Below are positions 685 through 62,725 of a stretch of 64,000 nt of DNA, in pieces. Where the stretch lies: the IMG/VR virus record IMGVR_UViG_3300011008_000003; one strand, written 5' to 3'. The notes below the pieces were generated by a model, which saw only the letters and a program-made list of their open reading frames with translations, did not search any database and was not told where the DNA came from. The position numbers were made by a program, and so were the translations under genes. This stretch comes from a virus (taxonomy: Duplodnaviria > Heunggongvirae > Uroviricota > Caudoviricetes). Numbering within the stretch: position 1 is the stretch's first letter; the number at the start of each line of letters is the position of its first letter.

Positions 685-1041
685 ATGAGATACGATTTCG
701 CACATCCAAAATTTAAGAACGGCATGGTTACATTCGCCGAAAAGAAACCAGATTTACTTTATGAATTCCGACAGGCAGCAATGAGACGTCATTATGTGCT
801 ACGACCGGACATGGTTTTGTATACCCCAGATCATGAACGCCTTGCCAAGGTAGAGAATTATTTTGATATACTTGTCGTAACCAAGTTCAATGATATTGGT
901 TCAACTAAATTACGTTCTAAACAGGATATTGACCGATTCTTTAGAGAAATGGATGAATGTTGTGACGTTAAAAATATTCATCAGATGGATCTTAATGAAG
1001 CGAAAACAATTCTAAAGGAAAACGGATATATTATTGAATAA
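685..1041 (+). CDS. Putative late/virion protein with C-terminal MDLNEAKTILKENGYIIE tag
   Basis: 118 aa; late promoter upstream; tag shared with 53107, 53409, 57713. Confidence 0.7.
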   Translation: MRYDFAHPKFKNGMVTFAEKKPDLLYEFRQAAMRRHYVLRPDMVLYTPDHERLAKVENYFDILVVTKFNDIGSTKLRSKQDIDRFFREMDECCDVKNIHQMDLNEAKTILKENGYIIE

Positions 1042-6204: not shown

Positions 6205-6240
6205 AATATAACAAAAGGATTGACGTTCGTCAACCCCTTT
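6205..6240 (-). promoter_or_regulatory. Fused terminator/early promoter element
   Basis: GGGGTTGAC-GAAC-GTCAATCC-TTTT; TTGACG-N17-TATATT. Confidence 0.85.
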
Positions 6241-6258
6241 TTGTCGGCTCTGCAAAGC

Positions 6259-8241: not shown

Positions 8242-8273
8242 AATATAGAAAAAGGCTGACTCGTCGTCAACCC
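8242..8273 (-). promoter_or_regulatory. Fused terminator/early promoter element
   Basis: GGGTTGAC-GACGA-GTCAGCC-TTTTT-C-TATATT. Confidence 0.85.
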
Positions 8274-8294
8274 TTTATATTTTAGTTGATAAAA

Positions 8295-21583: not shown

Positions 21584-21618
21584 AATATAGTAAAGCGATT
21601 GACTTCTGTCAACCGCTT
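21584..21618 (-). promoter_or_regulatory. Fused terminator/early promoter element
   Basis: AAGCGGTTGAC-AGAA-GTCAATCGCTT; TTGACA-N17-TATATT. Confidence 0.85.
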
Positions 21619-21638
21619 AATTTAAATATTGGTGAAAT

Positions 21639-35096: not shown

Positions 35097-35130
35097 AATA
35101 TAGAAAAAGGGCTGACTTTCGTCAACCCTT
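35097..35130 (-). promoter_or_regulatory. Fused terminator/early promoter element
   Basis: AAGGGTTGAC-GAAA-GTCAGCCCTTTTT-C-TATATT. Confidence 0.9.
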
Positions 35131-35149
35131 AATAGGTAAAACAAATTGT

Positions 35150-35881
35150 TTAGAAATCAGAAAGACTGTCTCTGTCGTAGAAGTCTTCATCCGGGTTCTT
35201 TTCCGGGAATTCTTCAAGTTCAGAACCGTATTCAATATCGTCGTCATCTTCGAATTCGTTATCACCGAGCGTATCGGCAATGAGATCGTCTAATCCTTCA
35301 TCGGTAGGACCTTCAGTCGGGGTTCCAAGAAGAACATCCTGGTCAACATCCGGATAAACCTTCTGAAGAAGGTCAAGTCCGTCAGGCATGATGAACCACT
35401 TATTACGAGAGTTATCATACTTGATGAAATAGTTATCGGTCATTGCAGCAAACATGCTCTGGTCAGTTCCTTCACGAATTCCAGCGATTTCCTTAAGTTC
35501 AGCCGGTTCAAGATAACCACCGTTATCATAAAGAGCCTTAAGAACCTTAATATAGATACGGTCTGCAGACGGTTTCGAGAAGTTATAGCTATACTTGCTT
35601 TCGACAATATAGCCATTTTTCTTAAGAAGATTCAATGCGTTTTTAACTTCTGCAGATTCTGCAGTAACTGGACGATTTGCACGACGTCCAATGCTGAAAA
35701 TATCTTCGATAGCTTCGACCGCATTGTTATAATCGCATGACTTCTTATCAACTGCCTGTAAAACCTTGAGAACAAGATTCTTAATCAAAGACAGATTACC
35801 GCTCGGAACATTAGACTTAGAAGCTTTACGAATATAATTGTAAACGTCTTCAAGTCCATTAATATTAACTTCGTTAATCAT
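35150..35881 (-). CDS. Late protein: internal LLKKNGYIVE tag, winged-helix-like domain, acidic tail
   Basis: Late promoter and AGGAG RBS; VLKALYDNGG..RNKWFIMPDGLDLL. Confidence 0.7.
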   Translation of the reverse strand: MINEVNINGLEDVYNYIRKASKSNVPSGNLSLIKNLVLKVLQAVDKKSCDYNNAVEAIEDIFSIGRRANRPVTAESAEVKNALNLLKKNGYIVESKYSYNFSKPSADRIYIKVLKALYDNGGYLEPAELKEIAGIREGTDQSMFAAMTDNYFIKYDNSRNKWFIMPDGLDLLQKVYPDVDQDVLLGTPTEGPTDEGLDDLIADTLGDNEFEDDDDIEYGSELEEFPEKNPDEDFYDRDSLSDF

Positions 35882-35900: not shown

Positions 35901-35908
35901 TATTTATA
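35901..35908 (-). promoter_or_regulatory. T4-type late promoter TATAAATA
   Basis: Exact octamer upstream of RBS. Confidence 0.8.
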
Positions 35909-43439: not shown

Positions 43440-43473
43440 AATATAATAAAAAGGGTGACTTTCGTCAACCCTT
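43440..43473 (-). promoter_or_regulatory. Fused terminator/early promoter element
   Basis: AAGGGTTGAC-GAAA-GTCACCCTTTTT; TTGACG-N17-TATATT. Confidence 0.88.
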
Positions 43474-43497
43474 TCCTTATCTCCATTATACCCAAAT

Positions 43498-44971: not shown

Positions 44972-45008
44972 AATATAGCAAAAGAGTTGACTAGTGTCAA
45001 CCCCCTTT
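44972..45008 (-). promoter_or_regulatory. Fused terminator/early promoter element
   Basis: GGGGTTGAC-ACTA-GTCAACTC-TTTT; TTGACA-N17-TATATT. Confidence 0.88.
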
Positions 45009-45419
45009 TTAATCAAGAACATTTAACAATTGTTCCATTTCCTTATTCTTGTCGTTCGTAATGAGCTTAACGATTTTCTTTTTTACGACGTTTATCGCAT
45101 AATTTAAATCTTCCGGTTCATTTGCATAAAGCATATGCTTGTGTGAACACATGAGAATCATTCCGTTTTCATGTTTTCTATTGTTAAGCCAACATACCGA
45201 CGGGAATATACCGATACGTTTATTTCTGATGTCCCAGGAAAATATAGCGCTTTTACCGTGAGATAGATATTCATTTTTCAAATGTCCATGAATAGATAAC
45301 GGCGAAACAAGAATCGGATCGTCTTCTTCAATTATAAGGTCATACGATTTGAATAACTCCTTTACTTCTTCAGGAGTTTCTATCTTCAAATTTCCGTTTT
45401 CTTTATATTTCGAGTACAT
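45009..45419 (-). CDS. Paralog-array protein 11
   Basis: KIETPEEVKELFKSYDL..FSWD..YANEPED..KNKEMEQLLNVLD. Confidence 0.75.
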   Translation of the reverse strand: MYSKYKENGNLKIETPEEVKELFKSYDLIIEEDDPILVSPLSIHGHLKNEYLSHGKSAIFSWDIRNKRIGIFPSVCWLNNRKHENGMILMCSHKHMLYANEPEDLNYAINVVKKKIVKLITNDKNKEMEQLLNVLD

Positions 45420-46780: not shown

Positions 46781-46817
46781 AATATAGAAAAAGGGTTGAC
46801 TTGCGTCAACCCCTTTT
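46781..46817 (-). promoter_or_regulatory. Fused terminator/early promoter element
   Basis: GGGTTGAC-GCAA-GTCAACCC-TTTTT-C-TATATT. Confidence 0.9.
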
Positions 46818-46835
46818 TGTACCAAGGAAATGCTT

Positions 46836-49417: not shown

Positions 49418-49451
49418 AATATAGAAAAAGGGCTGACTTTCGTCAACCCTT
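49418..49451 (-). promoter_or_regulatory. Fused terminator/early promoter element
   Basis: AAGGGTTGAC-GAAA-GTCAGCCCTTTTT-C-TATATT (same as 35097 copy). Confidence 0.9.
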
Positions 49452-49821
49452 ACTTATTAAAAGGAATAAGCTTTTTCGTCAGATTCATCAATAAAACCAT
49501 ATCTATATCCGGGTCACGTAATGATTTTATCAATTCCGGCGTTCGAAATTCTTGCTTTATTAATCGCAGAAGATTAGCTTGCAAAGAATCTACAGGAAAC
49601 CAGACACGGTTATGAGTCGCTATTTTTATACAGACATGATTTTCTCTATATTTGTCTATACATTTTCGGACAACCTTTTTGCCATGTTCTGTCTTTTTAT
49701 ATTTTTTAGCATATTCGGCCATTACACGTTTTCCGTTTGCTGACTCACGGTATTTCTTACCCTGTATACGGTGCATAGCCAGTCTATGCTGTCTTGCTTC
49801 TTCACTTTCGTTTTTCGGCAT
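49450..49821 (-). CDS. Basic protein resembling DNA-binding N-terminus of homing endonucleases
   Basis: KKYRESANGK / KKYKKTEHGK repeats; no HNH motif. Confidence 0.55.
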   Translation of the reverse strand: MPKNESEEARQHRLAMHRIQGKKYRESANGKRVMAEYAKKYKKTEHGKKVVRKCIDKYRENHVCIKIATHNRVWFPVDSLQANLLRLIKQEFRTPELIKSLRDPDIDMVLLMNLTKKLIPFNK

Positions 49822-53048: not shown

Positions 53049-53082
53049 AATATAGAAAAAGGGCTGACTCTCGTCAACCCTT
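53049..53082 (-). promoter_or_regulatory. Fused terminator/early promoter element
   Basis: AAGGGTTGAC-GAGA-GTCAGCCCTTTTT-C-TATATT. Confidence 0.9.
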
Positions 53083-53106
53083 TAAAAGCATAATTATTAT
53101 TTAGAC

Positions 53107-53370
53107 TTATCGCAGCTCGTTTAAATATTTATCGAGAATCGAATAAGAAAATGCCTTAGGCGGTTCACCCATAAGAAAACCACGCTGGATTTCGTTCTTA
53201 TGGTCTTCCAAGAACTGTTCAAACTGATCGTCGAGTTCCAGGCTTACAAAACCGTCCAAAAGCTTATCATGGAAAATTCCGTACCATTCCTTATATTGCG
53301 GTTCGTCGAAAACAGATTCAACAATATATCCGTTTTTCTTTAAAAGCTGAGTGGCTTCGATTAAATTCAT
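53107..53370 (-). CDS. Putative head-internal protein (N-terminal MNLIEATQLLKKNGYIVE tag)
   Basis: Late promoter 53393-53400; AAGGAG RBS. Confidence 0.75.
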   Translation of the reverse strand: MNLIEATQLLKKNGYIVESVFDEPQYKEWYGIFHDKLLDGFVSLELDDQFEQFLEDHKNEIQRGFLMGEPPKAFSYSILDKYLNELR

Positions 53371-53392
53371 TTAAAAACTCCTTACTTTTTAT

Positions 53393-53400
53393 TATTTATA
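53393..53400 (-). promoter_or_regulatory. T4-type late promoter TATAAATA
   Basis: Exact octamer. Confidence 0.8.
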
Positions 53401-53408
53401 AGAAATTC

Positions 53409-53915
53409 TTAAATACGATTTACATCATCAGTAAATTCAGCCTTGAGCTTGGCCAGTATTTCAGGATTATTTAAGACATCTTCTTCGGTTTGGCCTTCCT
53501 CATCAGAAATTTCAGGGTCATCGCAGATTTCCAGAATATTATTTGCTTCATAACCGATATAGTCACCGTAAAAGCCATTTATCAATTCGTTAAAAACTTC
53601 AGCAGCATCTGTATTTCCTGCCAAATTACCTTCGCCGGCGAACTGACGACAAGCCATAGCGGCATCGTTATCTACAGCTTCGACCATGACTGCATAATTG
53701 TCAGAGAATCCATATTTTTTAACCGTGGTCAAAAGATAGTTTACGACTTCTTCCTTATCCGATGTTACAATATCGATTTGAAAAGAATCCGGTTTATCAT
53801 TTCTGGTATACATATCGCCGGTAACGGTAAAACAGACATAATTATTTCCGGTAGATTCTTTAATAAGGCGATAGCCGTTATTCTTCAGCAATTGTTTTGC
53901 TTCGTTTAAATTCAT
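53409..53915 (-). CDS. Putative head-internal protein (N-terminal MNLNEAKQLLKNNGYRLIKE tag), acidic
   Basis: Late promoter 53935-53942; AGGAG RBS. Confidence 0.75.
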   Translation of the reverse strand: MNLNEAKQLLKNNGYRLIKESTGNNYVCFTVTGDMYTRNDKPDSFQIDIVTSDKEEVVNYLLTTVKKYGFSDNYAVMVEAVDNDAAMACRQFAGEGNLAGNTDAAEVFNELINGFYGDYIGYEANNILEICDDPEISDEEGQTEEDVLNNPEILAKLKAEFTDDVNRI

Positions 53916-53934
53916 TTGAAACTCCTGTTTTTAT

Positions 53935-53942
53935 TATTTATA
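53935..53942 (-). promoter_or_regulatory. T4-type late promoter TATAAATA
   Basis: Exact octamer. Confidence 0.8.
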
Positions 53943-54015
53943 AGAATCCTGATTATTAGCGGGAATCTTGATAAAAAACTTGTAAAATAAAACGGCCAAT
54001 TTGGCAAAATTGGCG

Positions 54016-54023
54016 TATAAATA
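54016..54023 (+). promoter_or_regulatory. T4-type late promoter TATAAATA
   Basis: Exact octamer upstream of AAGGA RBS. Confidence 0.8.
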
Positions 54024-54048
54024 AAGTATAAGTATAAGGAAAATTGAT

Positions 54049-54678
54049 ATGAATTTAAATGAATGGGTAATGAATGCGGCCGCCGGCCTTTTGACAGAAG
54101 ATACGCAAGTCGGAGAACAGCTCAGTAAGATTCCTAGGCCTGCCGAATATTCCTGGATGTCAGAAGAACGCTGGAACGAAATGGACGCTGAACAGCAGCA
54201 TACCTGGGTTCGTCAAGTACCGCTGGATGATCCTAACTGGAATGACCAACGCTATACGAAAGATAAAGTCCACATAGCTTTCTGCGACGCATTTGAAAAT
54301 GCACAGAAAGAGAACCCGGTTCCGTTGACTTGGTGTAGAGAAATGTATACAAAAGGATTCGATACATTTACTTTCGGATGTAAGGACCATAAGTACGCAT
54401 TCGATGTCTATGACGTACAGAAGAACGACCCGAATTACGGCCATGCGAATATCTGCGTCTATGTAAAGGATCCGAATATTAAATATCCGGCAAATAACCT
54501 GGTTAGCGCATTCTATGTCAAGAAGGACACTCTTCCGAATGAAGCCAAGTCGATTTTCAGGATAACCAACAGGCTATTTAACGACGGGTTGGAAAAGTTC
54601 AACAAGGATAACGGTTTCATGCTTAAGAACAAGAATGAATCCTATCGACCAATGTCCAAACGTTTGCTTAACGGCTAA
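54049..54678 (+). CDS. Late protein (MNLNE...GLLTE N-terminus)
   Basis: 209 aa; late promoter. Confidence 0.75.
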   Translation: MNLNEWVMNAAAGLLTEDTQVGEQLSKIPRPAEYSWMSEERWNEMDAEQQHTWVRQVPLDDPNWNDQRYTKDKVHIAFCDAFENAQKENPVPLTWCREMYTKGFDTFTFGCKDHKYAFDVYDVQKNDPNYGHANICVYVKDPNIKYPANNLVSAFYVKKDTLPNEAKSIFRITNRLFNDGLEKFNKDNGFMLKNKNESYRPMSKRLLNG

Positions 54679-54685
54679 AATAAAA

Positions 54686-54704
54686 GAGGGAATTAATTTC
54701 CCTC
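54686..54704. terminator. Bidirectional terminator
   Basis: GAGGGAA..TTCCCTC between convergent genes. Confidence 0.6.
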
Positions 54705-54932
54705 GTTTTTTATATAATCGGTATCTTGATTTAATGCGATATAGTTAAACGGTATCGACGTCAAGTTGTCTTTGTACTGTTTTTTCGTAAATCGCCTTAA
54801 TTCCCTGGTAAAATCATCGAAAAGTCTTTGCCTGCCAAGCGGAGACAAATTCTGTTTCGCACCCCTTAGTTCTTTTTCATACTTCAAAATTACCTGGGCG
54901 GCTTCGTAATCATCATAGTAAGAATTTTTCAT
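54693..54932 (-). CDS. Hypothetical protein
   Basis: ATGA-coupled. Confidence 0.65.
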   Translation of the reverse strand: MKNSYYDDYEAAQVILKYEKELRGAKQNLSPLGRQRLFDDFTRELRRFTKKQYKDNLTSIPFNYIALNQDTDYIKNEGN

Positions 54933-55303
54933 AATTCCTCTAACATGGACTCTATTTCATACTGCTTCAGCCTCAATGCGAACGTAAGTGGATCTCCGTA
55001 CAGCAGTCGAAACATGTCGCCGGTCGAAATCCGTAAAACCGCCATCCATGTCCTATAAGGAACTGAATCTGAAACCGCTATCATCTGGCGCCCATATCCG
55101 GTTTTCCCTTTGTTATATATCCTAATAAAATACTTGCCTGAATTGACCTGTATCAACGAAATATCGAACCCGCCGCCGCTGAAACAGTATTCGAGTGTCA
55201 TTCCTTCCAGCGTACCAGCCTGCTGCACGGTCATCAGTGTCCATCCGTAACGCATCAGCTCGTCATAAACGGAATTTACGCTATAAGTAAGCAGTGGAAT
55301 CAT
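54929..55303 (-). CDS. Hypothetical protein
   Basis: ATGA-coupled start MIPLLT. Confidence 0.65.
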   Translation of the reverse strand: MIPLLTYSVNSVYDELMRYGWTLMTVQQAGTLEGMTLEYCFSGGGFDISLIQVNSGKYFIRIYNKGKTGYGRQMIAVSDSVPYRTWMAVLRISTGDMFRLLYGDPLTFALRLKQYEIESMLEEL

Positions 55304-55644
55304 TGGAGCACTTTGTCCATATACATTATGTCGTACAGAGCACGCAATCCGGTAATGCCGCCTGTAGCGATAGCCTTGCAAATATCGTCCATATATACAA
55401 TCAGAGATTTGCTCGGGTCAAGATCCGTCGAATCGAGCTTACCCGTCACCTTATATAATCTGGAATAAGGAGCCTTATAAACAAAACTCCAATGCGAATT
55501 ACAGGTGGCTCCGATATACATATTATTATCGTTGGAATTCCACATGACGGTCGTATCGCCAATAAAATATTTCTTCAAGAAACCGTTCTCGAATTCTTGC
55601 TTGCCGTCAAAATATTTAGTTATTATTCCAAAATAATCCGTCAT
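55300..55644 (-). CDS. Hypothetical protein
   Basis: 114 aa. Confidence 0.7.
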   Translation of the reverse strand: MTDYFGIITKYFDGKQEFENGFLKKYFIGDTTVMWNSNDNNMYIGATCNSHWSFVYKAPYSRLYKVTGKLDSTDLDPSKSLIVYMDDICKAIATGGITGLRALYDIMYMDKVLQ

Positions 55645-55646
55645 AT

Positions 55647-56189
55647 TTACTCAACCCATACATAATTGACATCATGGCAGTTTACGCTAAGCAGCTCACC
55701 CTTTCGTTTTTCAAGTTCGTTTAACATTTCAGCTGTATAATTTTTAGAACCGCTCTGACATTCTTCAGTTTCACATGGAGAAACTCCGACATATAAGTAA
55801 TCCATAGCAGTCGGTTTTAAATTATTTTCGAGATGTTCATTCAATTCTTCTTCGGTCCAGAGTACGTTTTCATAAACCGTTGTATCGTCAACAATCGTCC
55901 TGTTATATAAGTCGACATAAGACCATGGTTCAGACGGCTGAATATCTGACTTATAAAATTCCGGTGCGGAAGCATACAGCTGGATTACTTCATCGACATT
56001 CGGGTGATAATACCTGATAGTATAGTCGCAACGCTTAGTCGACAAATCTTCAGAAGATACGCCGTTATCGGAACATCCGAAAAGCATTGCTACAGTGGTC
56101 GCGATGATAAAAACCATTAACAGGTAGAACGGCATTTCGCGAAGGGTAATACCTTTCTTTTCTTTCTTTGTATATTCTGATAATGTCAT
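55647..56189 (-). CDS. Lipoprotein
   Basis: Lipobox LFG-C-SDNG. Confidence 0.75.
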   Translation of the reverse strand: MTLSEYTKKEKKGITLREMPFYLLMVFIIATTVAMLFGCSDNGVSSEDLSTKRCDYTIRYYHPNVDEVIQLYASAPEFYKSDIQPSEPWSYVDLYNRTIVDDTTVYENVLWTEEELNEHLENNLKPTAMDYLYVGVSPCETEECQSGSKNYTAEMLNELEKRKGELLSVNCHDVNYVWVE

Positions 56190-56198
56190 TTTTTCCTC

Positions 56199-56585
56199 TT
56201 ATTTTTTGTACTGGTTGATTACGTTTTTGAGTGAGTCGATTATTGCCTTATCGTCTTCTTTCTTTAAAGGTTCAACCTTATATTCTACAGAATCCTTATA
56301 CCATTTCGCCTTCTTGCTAAGACACTTTATGGTTTCTTCCTGGCATGTCGGTTTCGTCTCGTAGAACATCTTAAGCTGAGTATTTTTATCCGGAGCTACA
56401 AAGTATAATGCTATACCGCCAGCAACGCATACTATTCCCAGAATAAGCATTGCAATATCGTCACCTTCTATGGATTTACGGCGGATTCGATTACGAATAA
56501 ACAGGAACAAGACAACGTTGCCGAAATTCAAGATAAGCAGGGCAACGATAAAAACAAGCCAGAAAATAAAAATAATAGATGCCAT
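56199..56585 (-). CDS. Membrane protein (2 TM)
   Basis: Hydrophobic segments; GGAG RBS. Confidence 0.75.
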   Translation of the reverse strand: MASIIFIFWLVFIVALLILNFGNVVLFLFIRNRIRRKSIEGDDIAMLILGIVCVAGGIALYFVAPDKNTQLKMFYETKPTCQEETIKCLSKKAKWYKDSVEYKVEPLKKEDDKAIIDSLKNVINQYKK

Positions 56586-56587
56586 AT

Positions 56588-57064
56588 TTACTCCGATTTA
56601 ACCCACTTGGGCACGAGCGAGCCTTCATATTCAGCGATTTGGTCAAGAATCTTCTTTACTGCCTTGATAACCTTTTTACCATTTAACGCTACATAATGGC
56701 AGTCAGGGTTACTTCCGGCACGTTCCTTGTATTCGTTGTTACGTTTGAAAAAATCGTCCCAGTATGTCACATGCGGCAAATGCCCGCCTTCGATACAGGT
56801 ACAGTCGTATGTAAACGCCAACTGATCCTTGTAATAATAGCCAATCATGCACTTATACTGTGGTTTAAAGTTACGGGCAGTAAATTCAAATCCTGAATCT
56901 GCGACGAGCTTATCAATTTCATTCTTGGTATCAATATATTGTTGGCTCGGAGGCGTATTCATAAAATACGGGTCTTTCTTCTTGATTTCCTGGAATTCTT
57001 CAAGAATTTCTGGATGTACAAGGCCGATCCAGCCGGCGAGTTTTTTGCATTCATCTGTATTCAT
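56588..57064 (-). CDS. Hypothetical protein (leaderless start)
   Basis: ATG 7 nt after -10. Confidence 0.75.
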   Translation of the reverse strand: MNTDECKKLAGWIGLVHPEILEEFQEIKKKDPYFMNTPPSQQYIDTKNEIDKLVADSGFEFTARNFKPQYKCMIGYYYKDQLAFTYDCTCIEGGHLPHVTYWDDFFKRNNEYKERAGSNPDCHYVALNGKKVIKAVKKILDQIAEYEGSLVPKWVKSE

Positions 57065-57071
57065 GTATCAG

Positions 57072-57104
57072 AATATAGAAAAAGGGCTGACTTACGTCAA
57101 CCCT
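57072..57104 (-). promoter_or_regulatory. Fused terminator/early promoter element
   Basis: AGGGTTGAC-GTAA-GTCAGCCCTTTTT-C-TATATT. Confidence 0.9.
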
Positions 57105-57108
57105 GTTT

Positions 57109-57648
57109 TTAAAGGTTATTGTCAATCGTATATAGCATATCGCCGTGATTAATACATGATTCTATACATGACTTGGTAGTTACCAGGTCAAGCATATTAC
57201 AGGGCGTAGTTCGACCCTGATAGATAAGATCTGCCGATGTATAGTAATGTCTTTTCTTCGGATGCCTTGCCATGGCTTTAGACGACATCAAATCGAATTC
57301 GCTGTTATATGTACCGTGTTTTCTCGCGTATTGGCCGTTAGGTAATGGTATAACTTGGACTCCTTGGACGGTAAGAATACTCGGTACAATATCGCCTGCC
57401 TCGATAACGAGCCACTGATTAGTTACGGCGATATATATTTCTTCGCTTCCGTGTAATTTTAAAACCGGCATGCAGTCTGAAACAATTCTGCATTTATGTC
57501 CGTCTATTTTCACAGAACCGTTATATGCGATAAATAGTTCATCGGCATAATCATTAATATGGTTATTTAAATAATTGGCTATATTATAGCCTTGTGCATT
57601 AATGACCGGACCGTTAATCTTTATCGGTTTTTTCTGTCTTATAGGCAT
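57109..57648 (-). CDS. Hypothetical protein (leaderless start MPIRQKK)
   Basis: ATG 7 nt after -10. Confidence 0.7.
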   Translation of the reverse strand: MPIRQKKPIKINGPVINAQGYNIANYLNNHINDYADELFIAYNGSVKIDGHKCRIVSDCMPVLKLHGSEEIYIAVTNQWLVIEAGDIVPSILTVQGVQVIPLPNGQYARKHGTYNSEFDLMSSKAMARHPKKRHYYTSADLIYQGRTTPCNMLDLVTTKSCIESCINHGDMLYTIDNNL

Positions 57649-57655
57649 ATTTGTA

Positions 57656-57687
57656 AATATAATAAAAAGGTTGACTCTCGTCAACCC
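57656..57687 (-). promoter_or_regulatory. Fused terminator/early promoter element
   Basis: GGTTGAC-GAGA-GTCAACC-TTTTT-AT-TATATT. Confidence 0.88.
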
Positions 57688-57712
57688 ATTATTCATTAAA
57701 AATTTCTTTTAA

Positions 57713-58033
57713 TTAAGCGAAAAGATTTATAATATCATCATAGCTCAAGTCACCCTTGACGTCTTCTTCTGCTTCCGGTTCGTTTGTGTCATCAACGATT
57801 GCGACCCATCTTTGCTGGTCGTCACTTTGCGCCTTTAATGTTAAAAAACGACCATCTGCATGTGTGAATACAAGTTTTGCCGGTACAGTGACTGTGTATT
57901 TGCTGAGTGATTTCACAAGTTCCCAGCCATTACTTGTAAGTGCTTGGATAATCTCAGAAGATATTCCGGTATCTTCTTTAATAAGCTTATGGCCGGTTCT
58001 ATTCAGTAATTGTTTTGCTTCGTTTAAATTCAT
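57713..58033 (-). CDS. Putative head-internal protein (N-terminal MNLNEAKQLLNRTGHKLIKE tag)
   Basis: AGGAGG RBS; downstream in a late operon. Confidence 0.75.
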   Translation of the reverse strand: MNLNEAKQLLNRTGHKLIKEDTGISSEIIQALTSNGWELVKSLSKYTVTVPAKLVFTHADGRFLTLKAQSDDQQRWVAIVDDTNEPEAEEDVKGDLSYDDIINLFA

Positions 58034-58045
58034 TGGTACCTCCTA

Positions 58046-58971
58046 TTAGCCCTTGCCGTATTCCTTAGCCAGTTCCTTACATTCAGCAGAAGGAACGTCA
58101 GAATCAAATACCTTGGAATTAATGTTAATTCGCGAGTCATACTGTTCAAGTTCTTCCATAATCCTGTAGAATGATGTAGAAAGCAAAGTCTGCAACTGGA
58201 ATGTTCCGCTTACCATATTATCGTCGGATTTTGCGGCGCTACGGAACTGTCTAGCCAGTTTATTGCACTTCTGGATAAGATCATTTACAAAATACTTGTC
58301 GTTTTTCAATTTTGCAGCCGCACGGGACATTTGTAAAGAAAGAAGTCCGACAAAATGGTTCGCCAGCTTATCGTCCATCCTGTTCATTTCCTGTCCGAGA
58401 AACGTTTCGCCTTTGAAAGTCCTTGCAGCCTAGTCGCCGAAACCTTCTTTAACGATATATCCGTGTTTCTCCAATAACTGTTTTGCTTCATTGATAGTCA
58501 TATTTTTATTCTTTATTTTTGTTGATTCATTTTCGTGTGCGCCGGAAATCCATTCGTCTTGATCTTCATCATAGTCACTAACAGATTTCTTCTGTTTTCG
58601 GGCATTATTACGTTTCTTTAAATATTCTTCAAATTCATCAATAGAATTATATGTAGCATAACACTTATTGCCTAAAAATACTCTTATAATAATATTTTGT
58701 TTTGTATCAACAACAATCGAAAATTGTGTTCCATAACGAGTTCTTATATAATAATGTGAAGTGCCGTCTCTGCCGTCCCAATAACCTAAAGGTTCATCTT
58801 TACTGGTCTTACCATCCGAAGTACCATCCCACCAATAAAAATCATCGCCAAGATATGTATCTTTGAGTTTTTAAGTTCATCTAGTATAGCATAGTCATTA
58901 GACGTATCTCTTGTTAAGTCATCATACTCGCAAAGCATACCTGCATGTTTAAGCATATTTTTATAATTCAT
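58046..58971 (-). pseudogene. Late tagged protein broken by a frameshift (A5 run 58868-58872) and an in-frame TAG (58430-58432)
   Basis: One frame is open 58870 to 58046 except for a single TAG and contains MTINEAKQLLEKHGYIVKE; the 5' part MNYKNMLKHAGMLCE is in another frame. Confidence 0.65.
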
Positions 58972-58990
58972 TTGAAACTCCTATTTTTAT

Positions 58991-58998
58991 TATTTATA
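58991..58998 (-). promoter_or_regulatory. T4-type late promoter TATAAATA
   Basis: Leader nearly identical to that of the 53915 gene. Confidence 0.8.
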
Positions 58999-59000
58999 AG

Positions 59001-59026
59001 AAAACCGGCAATCATTGATTACCGGT
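59001..59026 (-). terminator. Intrinsic terminator of glf abutting the late promoter
   Basis: ACCGGTAATC..GATTGCCGGT-TTT. Confidence 0.7.
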
Positions 59027-61834: not shown

Positions 61835-61867
61835 AATATAGTAAAAAGACTGACATTTGTCAGCCTT
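61835..61867 (-). promoter_or_regulatory. Fused terminator/early promoter element (variant)
   Basis: AAGGCTGAC-AAAT-GTCAGTCTTTTT-AC-TATATT. Confidence 0.75.
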
Positions 61868-61876
61868 TATTTTAAG

Positions 61877-62725
61877 TTATATTATCATTTCACATATATC
61901 ACTACAATAAACCGGTTTTTTTGTAATTTCATTTATTATTCTTGCTTCATTATAATTAGATTCTATAAAAATTAATGCATCACTTTGCTTATAAAAATTA
62001 GCTTTATATTTTGCAGGATTTATTTTTCTACGTTCTTCATGATTTTTTGCAGGACACATAATTAATTTTTCATATTCTATATTATGTTCTTTTAACCAAT
62101 TTTCAGTAATTTTTCTATATTTTTCTAGTCGACCTGTTACTATATATTTTAACTTTTTATCTGGTACAAATTTTTGCTTAGATTGTTTTATAAAATTAAT
62201 ATATTTTTCGCCATCATCATCTATGCCTTTTGGAACATCTTCGCATAAAAATCCATCCATATCTATACAACCTCTATTTATACCACGTTTTAAAATATTC
62301 CATGGTAAAAATTGGTCTTTAAAAATTTGAAAATAAATATCAACTTTATTAACAGAATATGGTTCTACAAAAATTACACAAGTTGTAATTTTAACTTCTT
62401 TGTTATTTTCTATAATTTTTTGTTTTGCTGTATTCATTGTTTCACCTAAACCCATTGCATCATCAAACAATAAAATATGTTTTACATTTATAGGGTAATC
62501 TGGTGATAATGATGCTTTTCTTAATTTAATAGATTCAGTATTATTTAAAAAATCAAATAATGAAACTACAGGTTTTCTAAGATATTCGCCAAGAATTGTT
62601 CCAAATATATAACCACTTCTTGGAATACATACAATTAAATCTATATCTGATGGTATTTTAATTAATGAATTAAAACATAATGCATTTATATAATTTAAAT
62701 CTTTATAATTTCTAAAATCTAACAT
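61877..62725 (-). CDS. Type I phosphoribosyltransferase fused to a HAD phosphatase
   Basis: IPRSG, ILLFDDAMGLGETM (PRPP loop); CIDMDG, IVTGR, FIES (HAD motifs). Confidence 0.85.
   Translation of the reverse strand: MLDFRNYKDLNYINALCFNSLIKIPSDIDLIVCIPRSGYIFGTILGEYLRKPVVSLFDFLNNTESIKLRKASLSPDYPINVKHILLFDDAMGLGETMNTAKQKIIENNKEVKITTCVIFVEPYSVNKVDIYFQIFKDQFLPWNILKRGINRGCIDMDGFLCEDVPKGIDDDGEKYINFIKQSKQKFVPDKKLKYIVTGRLEKYRKITENWLKEHNIEYEKLIMCPAKNHEERRKINPAKYKANFYKQSDALIFIESNYNEARIINEITKKPVYCSDICEMII

Follow-up and report, generated by a model that had tools for sequence, protein, structure and literature searches.

Phage T4 directs its internal proteins, unrelated to one another, to the core by means of propeptides 10-19 residues long, which the protease gp21 cuts off after a Glu; these proteins co-purify with gp22, both ends of Alt are trimmed, and in the T-even phages the internal-protein genes are diverse behind a capsid-targeting sequence (CTS) that is conserved (PMC9026906, PMC5694885, PMC3012670, PMC8442874). 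The description of the CTS in IPI, IPII, IPIII and Alt is that of Mullaney and Black 1996, for which the reviews PMC9026906, PMC3012670 and PMC8442874 are the source. The present analysis concerns a peptide of about 20 residues, here called the tag, that is found on late proteins encoded in a 64,000-nucleotide stretch of viral DNA (IMG/VR record IMGVR_UViG_3300011008_000003, in its whole length referred to as the window) and on proteins of its relatives. There is about an even chance that this tag is the capsid-targeting propeptide of an uncultured clade of the T4 superfamily with genomes of about 400 kb, T4-CTS-like and unrelated to the T4 CTS in sequence. This reading is proposed because one peptide is joined to many payloads in late genes, with a built-in protease site and with the corresponding machinery encoded in the relatives, and because mature domains start after that site, tagged proteins are linked to the head gene cluster, one payload is an SLT enzyme and T4 offers the precedent.

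In both T4 and the phages considered here, unrelated late proteins share a short leader at the N-terminus (of 10-19 residues in T4 and about 20 in this clade) that ends in the gp21 motif [LI]-x-E, a gp21-family protease and a gp23-family capsid protein are present in the lineage, and payloads are exchanged behind the leader in hypervariable loci. The tag differs from the T4 CTS in being longer, in combining a helix, a G-Y pair and a hydrophobic stretch without sequence similarity to T4, in having about 17-19 carriers per genome with tandem, internal and conserved C-terminal copies and many acidic payloads, and in being known from sequence alone. What is new compared with the T4 CTS is the sequence, the larger repertoire, the flexible position and the tandem copies; the logic is the same. 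Among systems not related to T4, encapsulins use short cargo-loading peptides which, at either terminus, direct diverse cargo into an HK97-fold shell; this is a functional analogy only, to a different system with no protease step. The ejection-protein propeptides of SPN3US and phiKZ (PMC5694885) likewise belong to giant phages with many head proteins; identical N-terminal stretches occur there on diverged paralogues, and processing is after Glu, as predicted for the tag, with several sites in a propeptide and with processing at the C-terminus as well as the N-terminus. These phages differ in their S80 protease and A/S/G-x-E motif, and their carriers are paralogues, whereas the payloads described here are mostly unrelated.

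The tag, its carriers and their payloads

The window belongs to a large phage genome of 38% G+C, and its region from 53.1 to 59.0 kb is gene-dense, mostly encoded on the minus strand and hypervariable. Six tag copies were found in the window (Table 1): three N-terminal, one C-terminal, one inside a broken composite gene and one degenerate. The consensus of about 20 residues reads M-N-L-N-E-A-K-x-L-L-x-x-x-G-Y-x-[LI]-x-E, and the three N-terminal copies, in the genes starting at 53370, 53915 and 58033, follow M-N-L-[NI]-E-A-[KT]-Q-L-L-x-x-x-G-[YH]-x-[LIV]-x-(x)-E. With a hidden Markov model (HMM) of the tag, the five clear copies had E-values of 2e-6 to 2e-11, and a profile built from the copies retrieved nothing further in the window at E < 0.4. 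An earlier note on this DNA had placed the tag at the N-terminus of 53107-53370, 53409-53915 and 57713-58033 and at the C-terminus of 685-1041, and the HMM recovered it in all four genes. It had also listed two internal copies; that at 58433-58501 is clear, though it lies in a damaged or composite gene, and that at 35590-35653 (minus strand) is weak (E = 0.0045), with only model positions 9-19, the second half, matching. The partial versions suspected at 54049 and 58971 did not hold up, since neither matches the tag model: the former shares just M-N-L-N-E with the tag and bears a different conserved leader, and the latter shares just the promoter, the ribosome-binding site (RBS) and the first two codons with the tagged gene 53915.

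Megablast and tblastn searches against GenBank phages with the region, the 168-aa protein and the tag gave no match, and for this reason the tag appears to be carried by no cultured phage. An exact-match scan of IMG/VR for the tag DNA of the window also returned no match. Relatives in IMG/VR include a 16.9-kb contig (L001) that is syntenic with the window and 91-95% identical to it, a complete genome of 415,750 bp with terminal repeats (G001) and a 411-kb genome (G002); a further relative, G004, is a 31%-complete fragment. Orthologues of the 168-aa protein (53409-53915) are 85-96% identical. G001, with 47 tRNA genes in total, also has a tRNA-like gene at 304840-304915 (minus strand), reported by ARAGORN with an unassignable two-base anticodon. 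Among the relatives searched, Peptidase_S77 (the gp21 family, PF03420) was found above cut-off in G001, G002 and G004, and the Gp23 capsid family (PF07068) above cut-off in G001 and G002, with a capsid protein identity to any cultured phage of at most 33.5%. Based on the presence of this protease and a gp23-type capsid protein at such low identity, the clade appears to be a distant, uncultured branch of the T4 superfamily.

In G001 a regular expression for the motif matched 23 times, compared with 0-3 times in 20 residue shuffles, and 19 of the 23 matches lay at residue 5 of a protein starting M-x-[LIF]-x-E-A. This genome holds 17-19 N-terminal copies, against about one expected by chance, while the tag profile matched 11 times in G002 and six times in the 31% of G004 available. 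A pattern search of IMG/VR gave 31 matches, of which about seven or more would be expected by chance according to our own estimate from codon degeneracy. Among 22 copies from the window and one relative, invariant residues use varied synonymous codons (six for L10, four for G14 and four for A6), which shows that the peptide itself, not its DNA, is under selection.

A profile search of 5.8 billion proteins yielded 171 carriers, 120 of them listed, and the payload figures rest on these listed matches. The carriers are all metagenomic, on contigs of up to 435 kb. The tag is N-terminal in 95 of the 103 proteins with a clear tag; the other eight still start the tag with Met. After removal of the tag, the payloads, 77-585 aa in length, formed at least 25 clusters unrelated by BLAST, a method that misses remote homology, and the similarity between paralogues stops abruptly at residue 20, in agreement with the earlier claim of unrelated payloads. 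About half of the payloads are strongly acidic, although compared with the rest of the proteome this is only a trend (p = 0.09).

The only Pfam domain found among the payloads is an SLT lytic transglycosylase, which defines a well-conserved 281-aa family represented by G001 L058:11512-12354(-) and about 29 metagenome relatives and conserved across the clade. The SLT transglycosylase domain is known in internal virion proteins, and the tagged protein may be either a cell-wall enzyme carried in the virion or an endolysin with a tag. For ten window proteins, Pfam and PHROGs gave no family above threshold; PHROGs gave no family for three tagged proteins, and for the 168-aa protein only sub-threshold matches (E >= 0.04). 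With the PDB profile search only chance matches were obtained (best E = 0.06, a single helix), and the ESM Atlas search with the tag gave no usable match. Small domains with a helix-G-aromatic-strand start (HicA, PASTA, DUF4177) were considered and rejected, their Pfam matches being sub-threshold (PASTA E = 0.12, DUF4177 E = 0.067).

Of 85 distinct tags, 81 have an [LI]-x-E motif ending at residue 18-22, compared with 9.5% of 10-residue payload windows, and in two families the conserved mature domain follows directly after the [LI]-x-E or [LIV]-x-E site. In a 428-aa protein of G001 the tag occurs twice, at the N-terminus and, past a spacer domain, internally, and a 436-aa protein of G002 has a C-terminal tag and starts with a 9-residue leader of a different kind; they share a domain whose alignment starts at I-x-E in both, despite the differing leaders. 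Members of another family have 1-3 tags in tandem together with a Lys-rich stretch, and behind these a helical domain with a predicted local distance difference test score (pLDDT) above 90. Besides Met-1, the only invariant position in the alignment of this multi-tag family is the Glu of the [LIV]-x-E directly before the helical domain, which in P0135 coincides with the end of the second tag. In one member the tag is C-terminal instead, and the G002 member has V-P-P-W-A-K-L-x-E repeats in place of the poly-Lys stretch.

The multi-tag gene lies beside the protease gene in G001, two short open reading frames (ORFs) from the capsid gene in G002 and about 250 nt from the protease gene in G004. AlphaFold2 (AF2) modelling of a 217-aa two-tag protein gave a confident C-terminal helical domain with the tags docked to nothing, and a Foldseek search of this model against viral structures found nothing at E < 0.1. 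By analogy with T4, the multi-tag protein may be a prohead core component of the kind of gp67 or gp68. A 90-aa late protein encoded just upstream of the scaffold-like gene of G001 also has a tag-like C-terminus.

The G002 orthologue of ORF 685-1041 (63% identity) retains the C-terminal tag together with its Met, and C-terminal, internal and tandem copies occur in G001 as well. The earlier proposal that the tag works in any position is therefore right in so far as such copies exist, yet the N-terminal position strongly prevails among the listed proteins. A second leader family, M-x-F-K-D/E-Y-[LIV] ... [LI]-x-E, was found in late genes of G001, with about ten members, and of G002, where one protein has the second leader at its N-terminus and the tag described above (the NEAK tag) at its C-terminus.

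Late promoters and payload exchange

In G001 the box TATAAATA precedes the capsid, scaffold-like, protease and sheath genes, and on account of this placement it appears to be the late promoter there, of the gp55 type as in T4. All six window copies of the tag sit in units headed by TATAAATA. The earlier description of tagged genes as lying behind such promoters thus applies to the units, but not to every gene, as 57713-58033 has no box of its own and lies 12 nt behind ORF 58046-58387. In the whole window TATAAATA is not over-represented (12 sites compared with 8.2 expected), and the signal is in the placement of the sites. An HMM scan of relatives and a test of co-occurrence with TATAAATA, both suggested in the earlier note, showed enrichment: in G001, TATAAATA lies at most 50 nt upstream of 9 of 17 tagged genes and of 82 of 590 other genes (Fisher p = 2e-4, odds ratio 7), and most of the tagged genes without a near box follow a tagged late gene.

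Genes 53915 and 58971 have 38-nt promoter/RBS leaders which, as had been noticed before, are one base apart (97% identical, repeat family D15). The related idea that promoter, RBS and tag move as one holds for the module as a whole, which stays fixed while payloads are swapped, but not for gene 58971, which shares the leader without the tag. In the comparison of the window with L001, the flanks are 91-95% identical, yet unrelated payloads follow the two tags that start at 58033 and 53370. For gene 58033 the DNA is identical through tag codon 11 and unrelated beyond it until the repeat 57072-57121, where homology begins again; the corresponding point for gene 53370 is position 53103, immediately upstream of the repeat 53049-53098. 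P0006 has the same 25 N-terminal residues as the 168-aa protein and a different payload, and a G001 locus beside glf has three tagged genes whose payloads match none of those in the window. From these three comparisons it appears that the promoter-RBS-tag module stays while the payloads are exchanged.

The repeat at these junctions consists of a G+C stem-loop with TTGAC (a -35 box) in the stem, a T-run, and TATATT 17 nt after TTGAC, and has 12 copies in the window. Its sequence is that of a probable terminator combined with an early-type promoter which bounds variable genes, similar to the PeSL (promoter-early stem-loop) cassettes that mediate modular shuffling in T4-like phages (PMC2839356, PMC4122927). 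In both cases a composite terminator/early-promoter repeat bounds variable genes, here at or next to the right-hand swap junctions. The arrangement differs in that the left-hand partner is a late promoter and coding tag instead of a second PeSL, and in that one crossover lies inside coding sequence. The comparisons show that payloads are exchanged by recombination between the tag and the terminator/early-promoter repeat; as the crossover mapped inside the tag makes plain, a gene-swapping cassette is formed by a coding leader together with a regulatory repeat.

Possible role of the tag

If the tag is a capsid-targeting propeptide, late proteins would be made with a 20-residue leader composed of a short, predicted amphipathic helix, G-Y, a short hydrophobic stretch and [LI]-x-E. 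This leader would bind a component of the prohead core, so that the protein is enclosed as the shell forms; the gp21-type protease would then cut after the Glu and free the payload, which would remain inside the head and possibly pass into the cell along with the DNA. Injection and anti-defence roles of the payloads are conjecture. The tag's portability, its association with late promoters, the terminal [LI]-x-E, the protease and capsid families of the lineage and the copies in the head cluster all agree with the packaging tag proposed in the earlier note.

Several observations weigh against this reading. The tag HMM found no match in the T4 head gene region (including genes 67, 68, 21, 22 and alt), and by eye the tag differs from the T4 CTS M-K-T-Y-Q-E-F-I-A-E. 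The second leader is closer to the T4 CTS in sequence, so the function of the NEAK tag could be a different one. Copies at the C-terminus are often without an upstream or terminal cleavage motif, the payloads are frequently acidic whereas PMC9026906 describes the T4 internal proteins as basic, and two small complete phages without an S77 protease each have one similar N-terminus. The AF2 models give the tag helix just moderate confidence; for the 168-aa protein the model was poor (mean pLDDT 48), with no more than a helix at residues 3-12 for the tag. In the BLAST alignment of the G001 capsid protein with T4 gp23, L-T-E (52-54) was not placed on the T4 site, and this cleavage site is a candidate only. 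A complex prediction with the G001 protease and a 42-residue tag piece gave a score of 0.00 with controls not run, and counts neither way.

A fuller version of the reading is put forward tentatively and is rather doubtful as a whole. It would make the tag the clade's position-flexible, repeatable address peptide, loading some twenty fast-turning-over proteins, mostly small and often acidic, together with the SLT enzyme; the multi-tag protein would act as a core component or adaptor, the prohead protease would release the cargo at the Glu, and the tag DNA would serve as a swap site.

It is unlikely that the tag is instead a docking or oligomerisation motif, retained on the protein and not removed, for one common late partner other than the prohead core, such as a tail, baseplate or surface component, a chaperone or a host protein. 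Copies conserved at the C-terminus and internally would fit such a motif, as would the tandem copies, which suggest multivalent binding, and the tag's own predicted secondary structure; but docking needs neither a near-universal [LI]-x-E end nor mature domains that start after it, and the multi-tag protein is encoded in the head gene cluster.

It is improbable, too, that the carriers form one fast-evolving paralogous family in which the tag is the best-conserved structural element of a common small fold. The range of payload lengths with an SLT enzyme among them, the abrupt end of similarity at residue 20, the replacement of payloads between genomes that are 91-95% identical, with the 58033 junction inside the tag, and the occurrence of the same payload domain with the tag at either end all argue against a shared fold. 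Paralogy would nevertheless account for the tandem arrays of tagged genes in G001 (at about 151-153, 207-208, 216-217 and 272-274 kb) and for the similar predicted helix-strand pattern of some payloads, and remote homology is missed by clustering with BLAST only.

It is very improbable that the conserved unit is a cassette at the level of DNA or expression, made up of late promoter, RBS and an A-rich unstructured start and used in translation and homologous recombination, with a peptide that has no function of its own: the promoter-RBS leader is shared even with the tagless gene 58971 and one crossover lies inside the tag DNA, analogous to PeSL shuffling in T4-like phages (PMC2839356, PMC4122927), but the invariant residues use up to 6 synonymous codons and the peptide is kept at C-termini, internally and in tandem, where no promoter or start codon is involved.

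If the tag does load the capsid, it would define which proteins are injected by an abundant, uncultured group of giant gut and rumen phages and would name about 25 candidate effector families without other annotation, likely including counter-defence proteins. Targeting of the CTS type would then be an evolvable principle, not one T4 sequence. The tag could also provide a handle for the packaging of foreign proteins and a search key for virion cargo in metagenomes.

The composite gene and other features of the window

Table 1. Positions of tag copies, promoter boxes, repeats and related features in the window and in related genomes
Feature	Position	Strand	Remarks
Tagged late gene, 87 aa	53107..53370	-	tag 53311-53370 = first 18-20 codons; acidic payload; HMM E = 2e-6
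Tagged late gene, 168 aa	53409..53915	-	tag 53856-53915; acidic payload, isoelectric point 4.1; HMM E = 2e-11
Tagged gene, 106 aa	57713..58033	-	tag 57974-58033; HMM E = 2e-10; last gene of unit starting 58998
Tag copy, 23 codons	58433..58501	-	in frame behind -1 frame of 58971 gene; HMM E = 2e-11
Late gene, 118 aa, C-terminal tag	685..1041	+	tag 985-1038 = last 18 codons; TATAAATA 673-680
Late gene, 243 aa, degenerate internal tag	35150..35881	-	tag 35590-35653; TATAAATA 35901-35908
5' ORF, 61 aa, of composite/damaged gene	58786..58971	-	insert absent in L001
ORF, 113 aa	58046..58387	-	payload fused to upstream tag in L001; here cut off by TAG 58430-58432
TATAAATA late-type promoter box	53393..53400	-	30 nt upstream of ATG 53370
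TATAAATA box	53935..53942	-	27 nt upstream of ATG 53915; within 38-nt leader shared with 58965-59002
TATAAATA box of 58971-57713 unit	58991..58998	-	also serves gene 58033
Divergent late gene, other leader (M-N-L-N-E-W ... L-L-T-E)	54049..54678	+	no tag-HMM match; TATAAATA 54016-54023
PeSL-like terminator + early-type promoter	53049..53098	-	just downstream of right-hand swap boundary 53103
PeSL-like element	57072..57121	-	where L001 homology resumes
PeSL-like element	57656..57705	-	directly behind tagged gene 57713-58033
Repeat copies in the window	6205-6254, 8242-8291, 21584-21633, 35097-35146, 43440-43489, 44972-45021		
Repeat copies in the window	46781-46830, 49418-49467, 53049-53098, 57072-57121, 57656-57705, 61835-61884		
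Second-leader example	G001 L049:7527-8153	+	
Second-leader example	G002 L032:146-1453	+	
Multi-tag family member	G001 L049:9051-9701	-	
Multi-tag family member	G002 L069:1495-2061	+	
Multi-tag family members	P0123-P0140		

The composite gene 58971-58046 has a -1 frame that starts behind the A5 run at 58868-58872, extends over 146 codons into the tag and to 58433, and is then closed by the TAG at 58430-58432. In L001 the TAG of the window is TGG (W), the insert is missing and the tag is N-terminal on the 58387 payload; the 58387 ORF is therefore assigned as the payload of the 58501 tag. Stop-codon recoding of the in-frame TAG was considered and rejected, since TAG ends 11-12% of genes and G001 is without an amber suppressor tRNA. 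With TAG an ordinary stop in the clade and no suppressor tRNA in G001, the window copy may be damaged, misassembled or a genuine truncation, with sequencing error and pseudogene among the candidates.

A leader like that of gene 54049 (M-N-L-N-E-W ... L-L-[TD]-E) is present at 217139 (plus strand) in G001, also divergent from a tagged gene. Judging by its sequence, this type of leader may be another propeptide. Its L-L-[TD]-E end resembles an L-L-T-E in the N-terminal region of the G001 capsid protein. The listed 195-aa ORF 57109-57696 (minus strand) probably starts at an internal Met near 57648, because the PeSL-like element 57656-57705 covers its 5' end.

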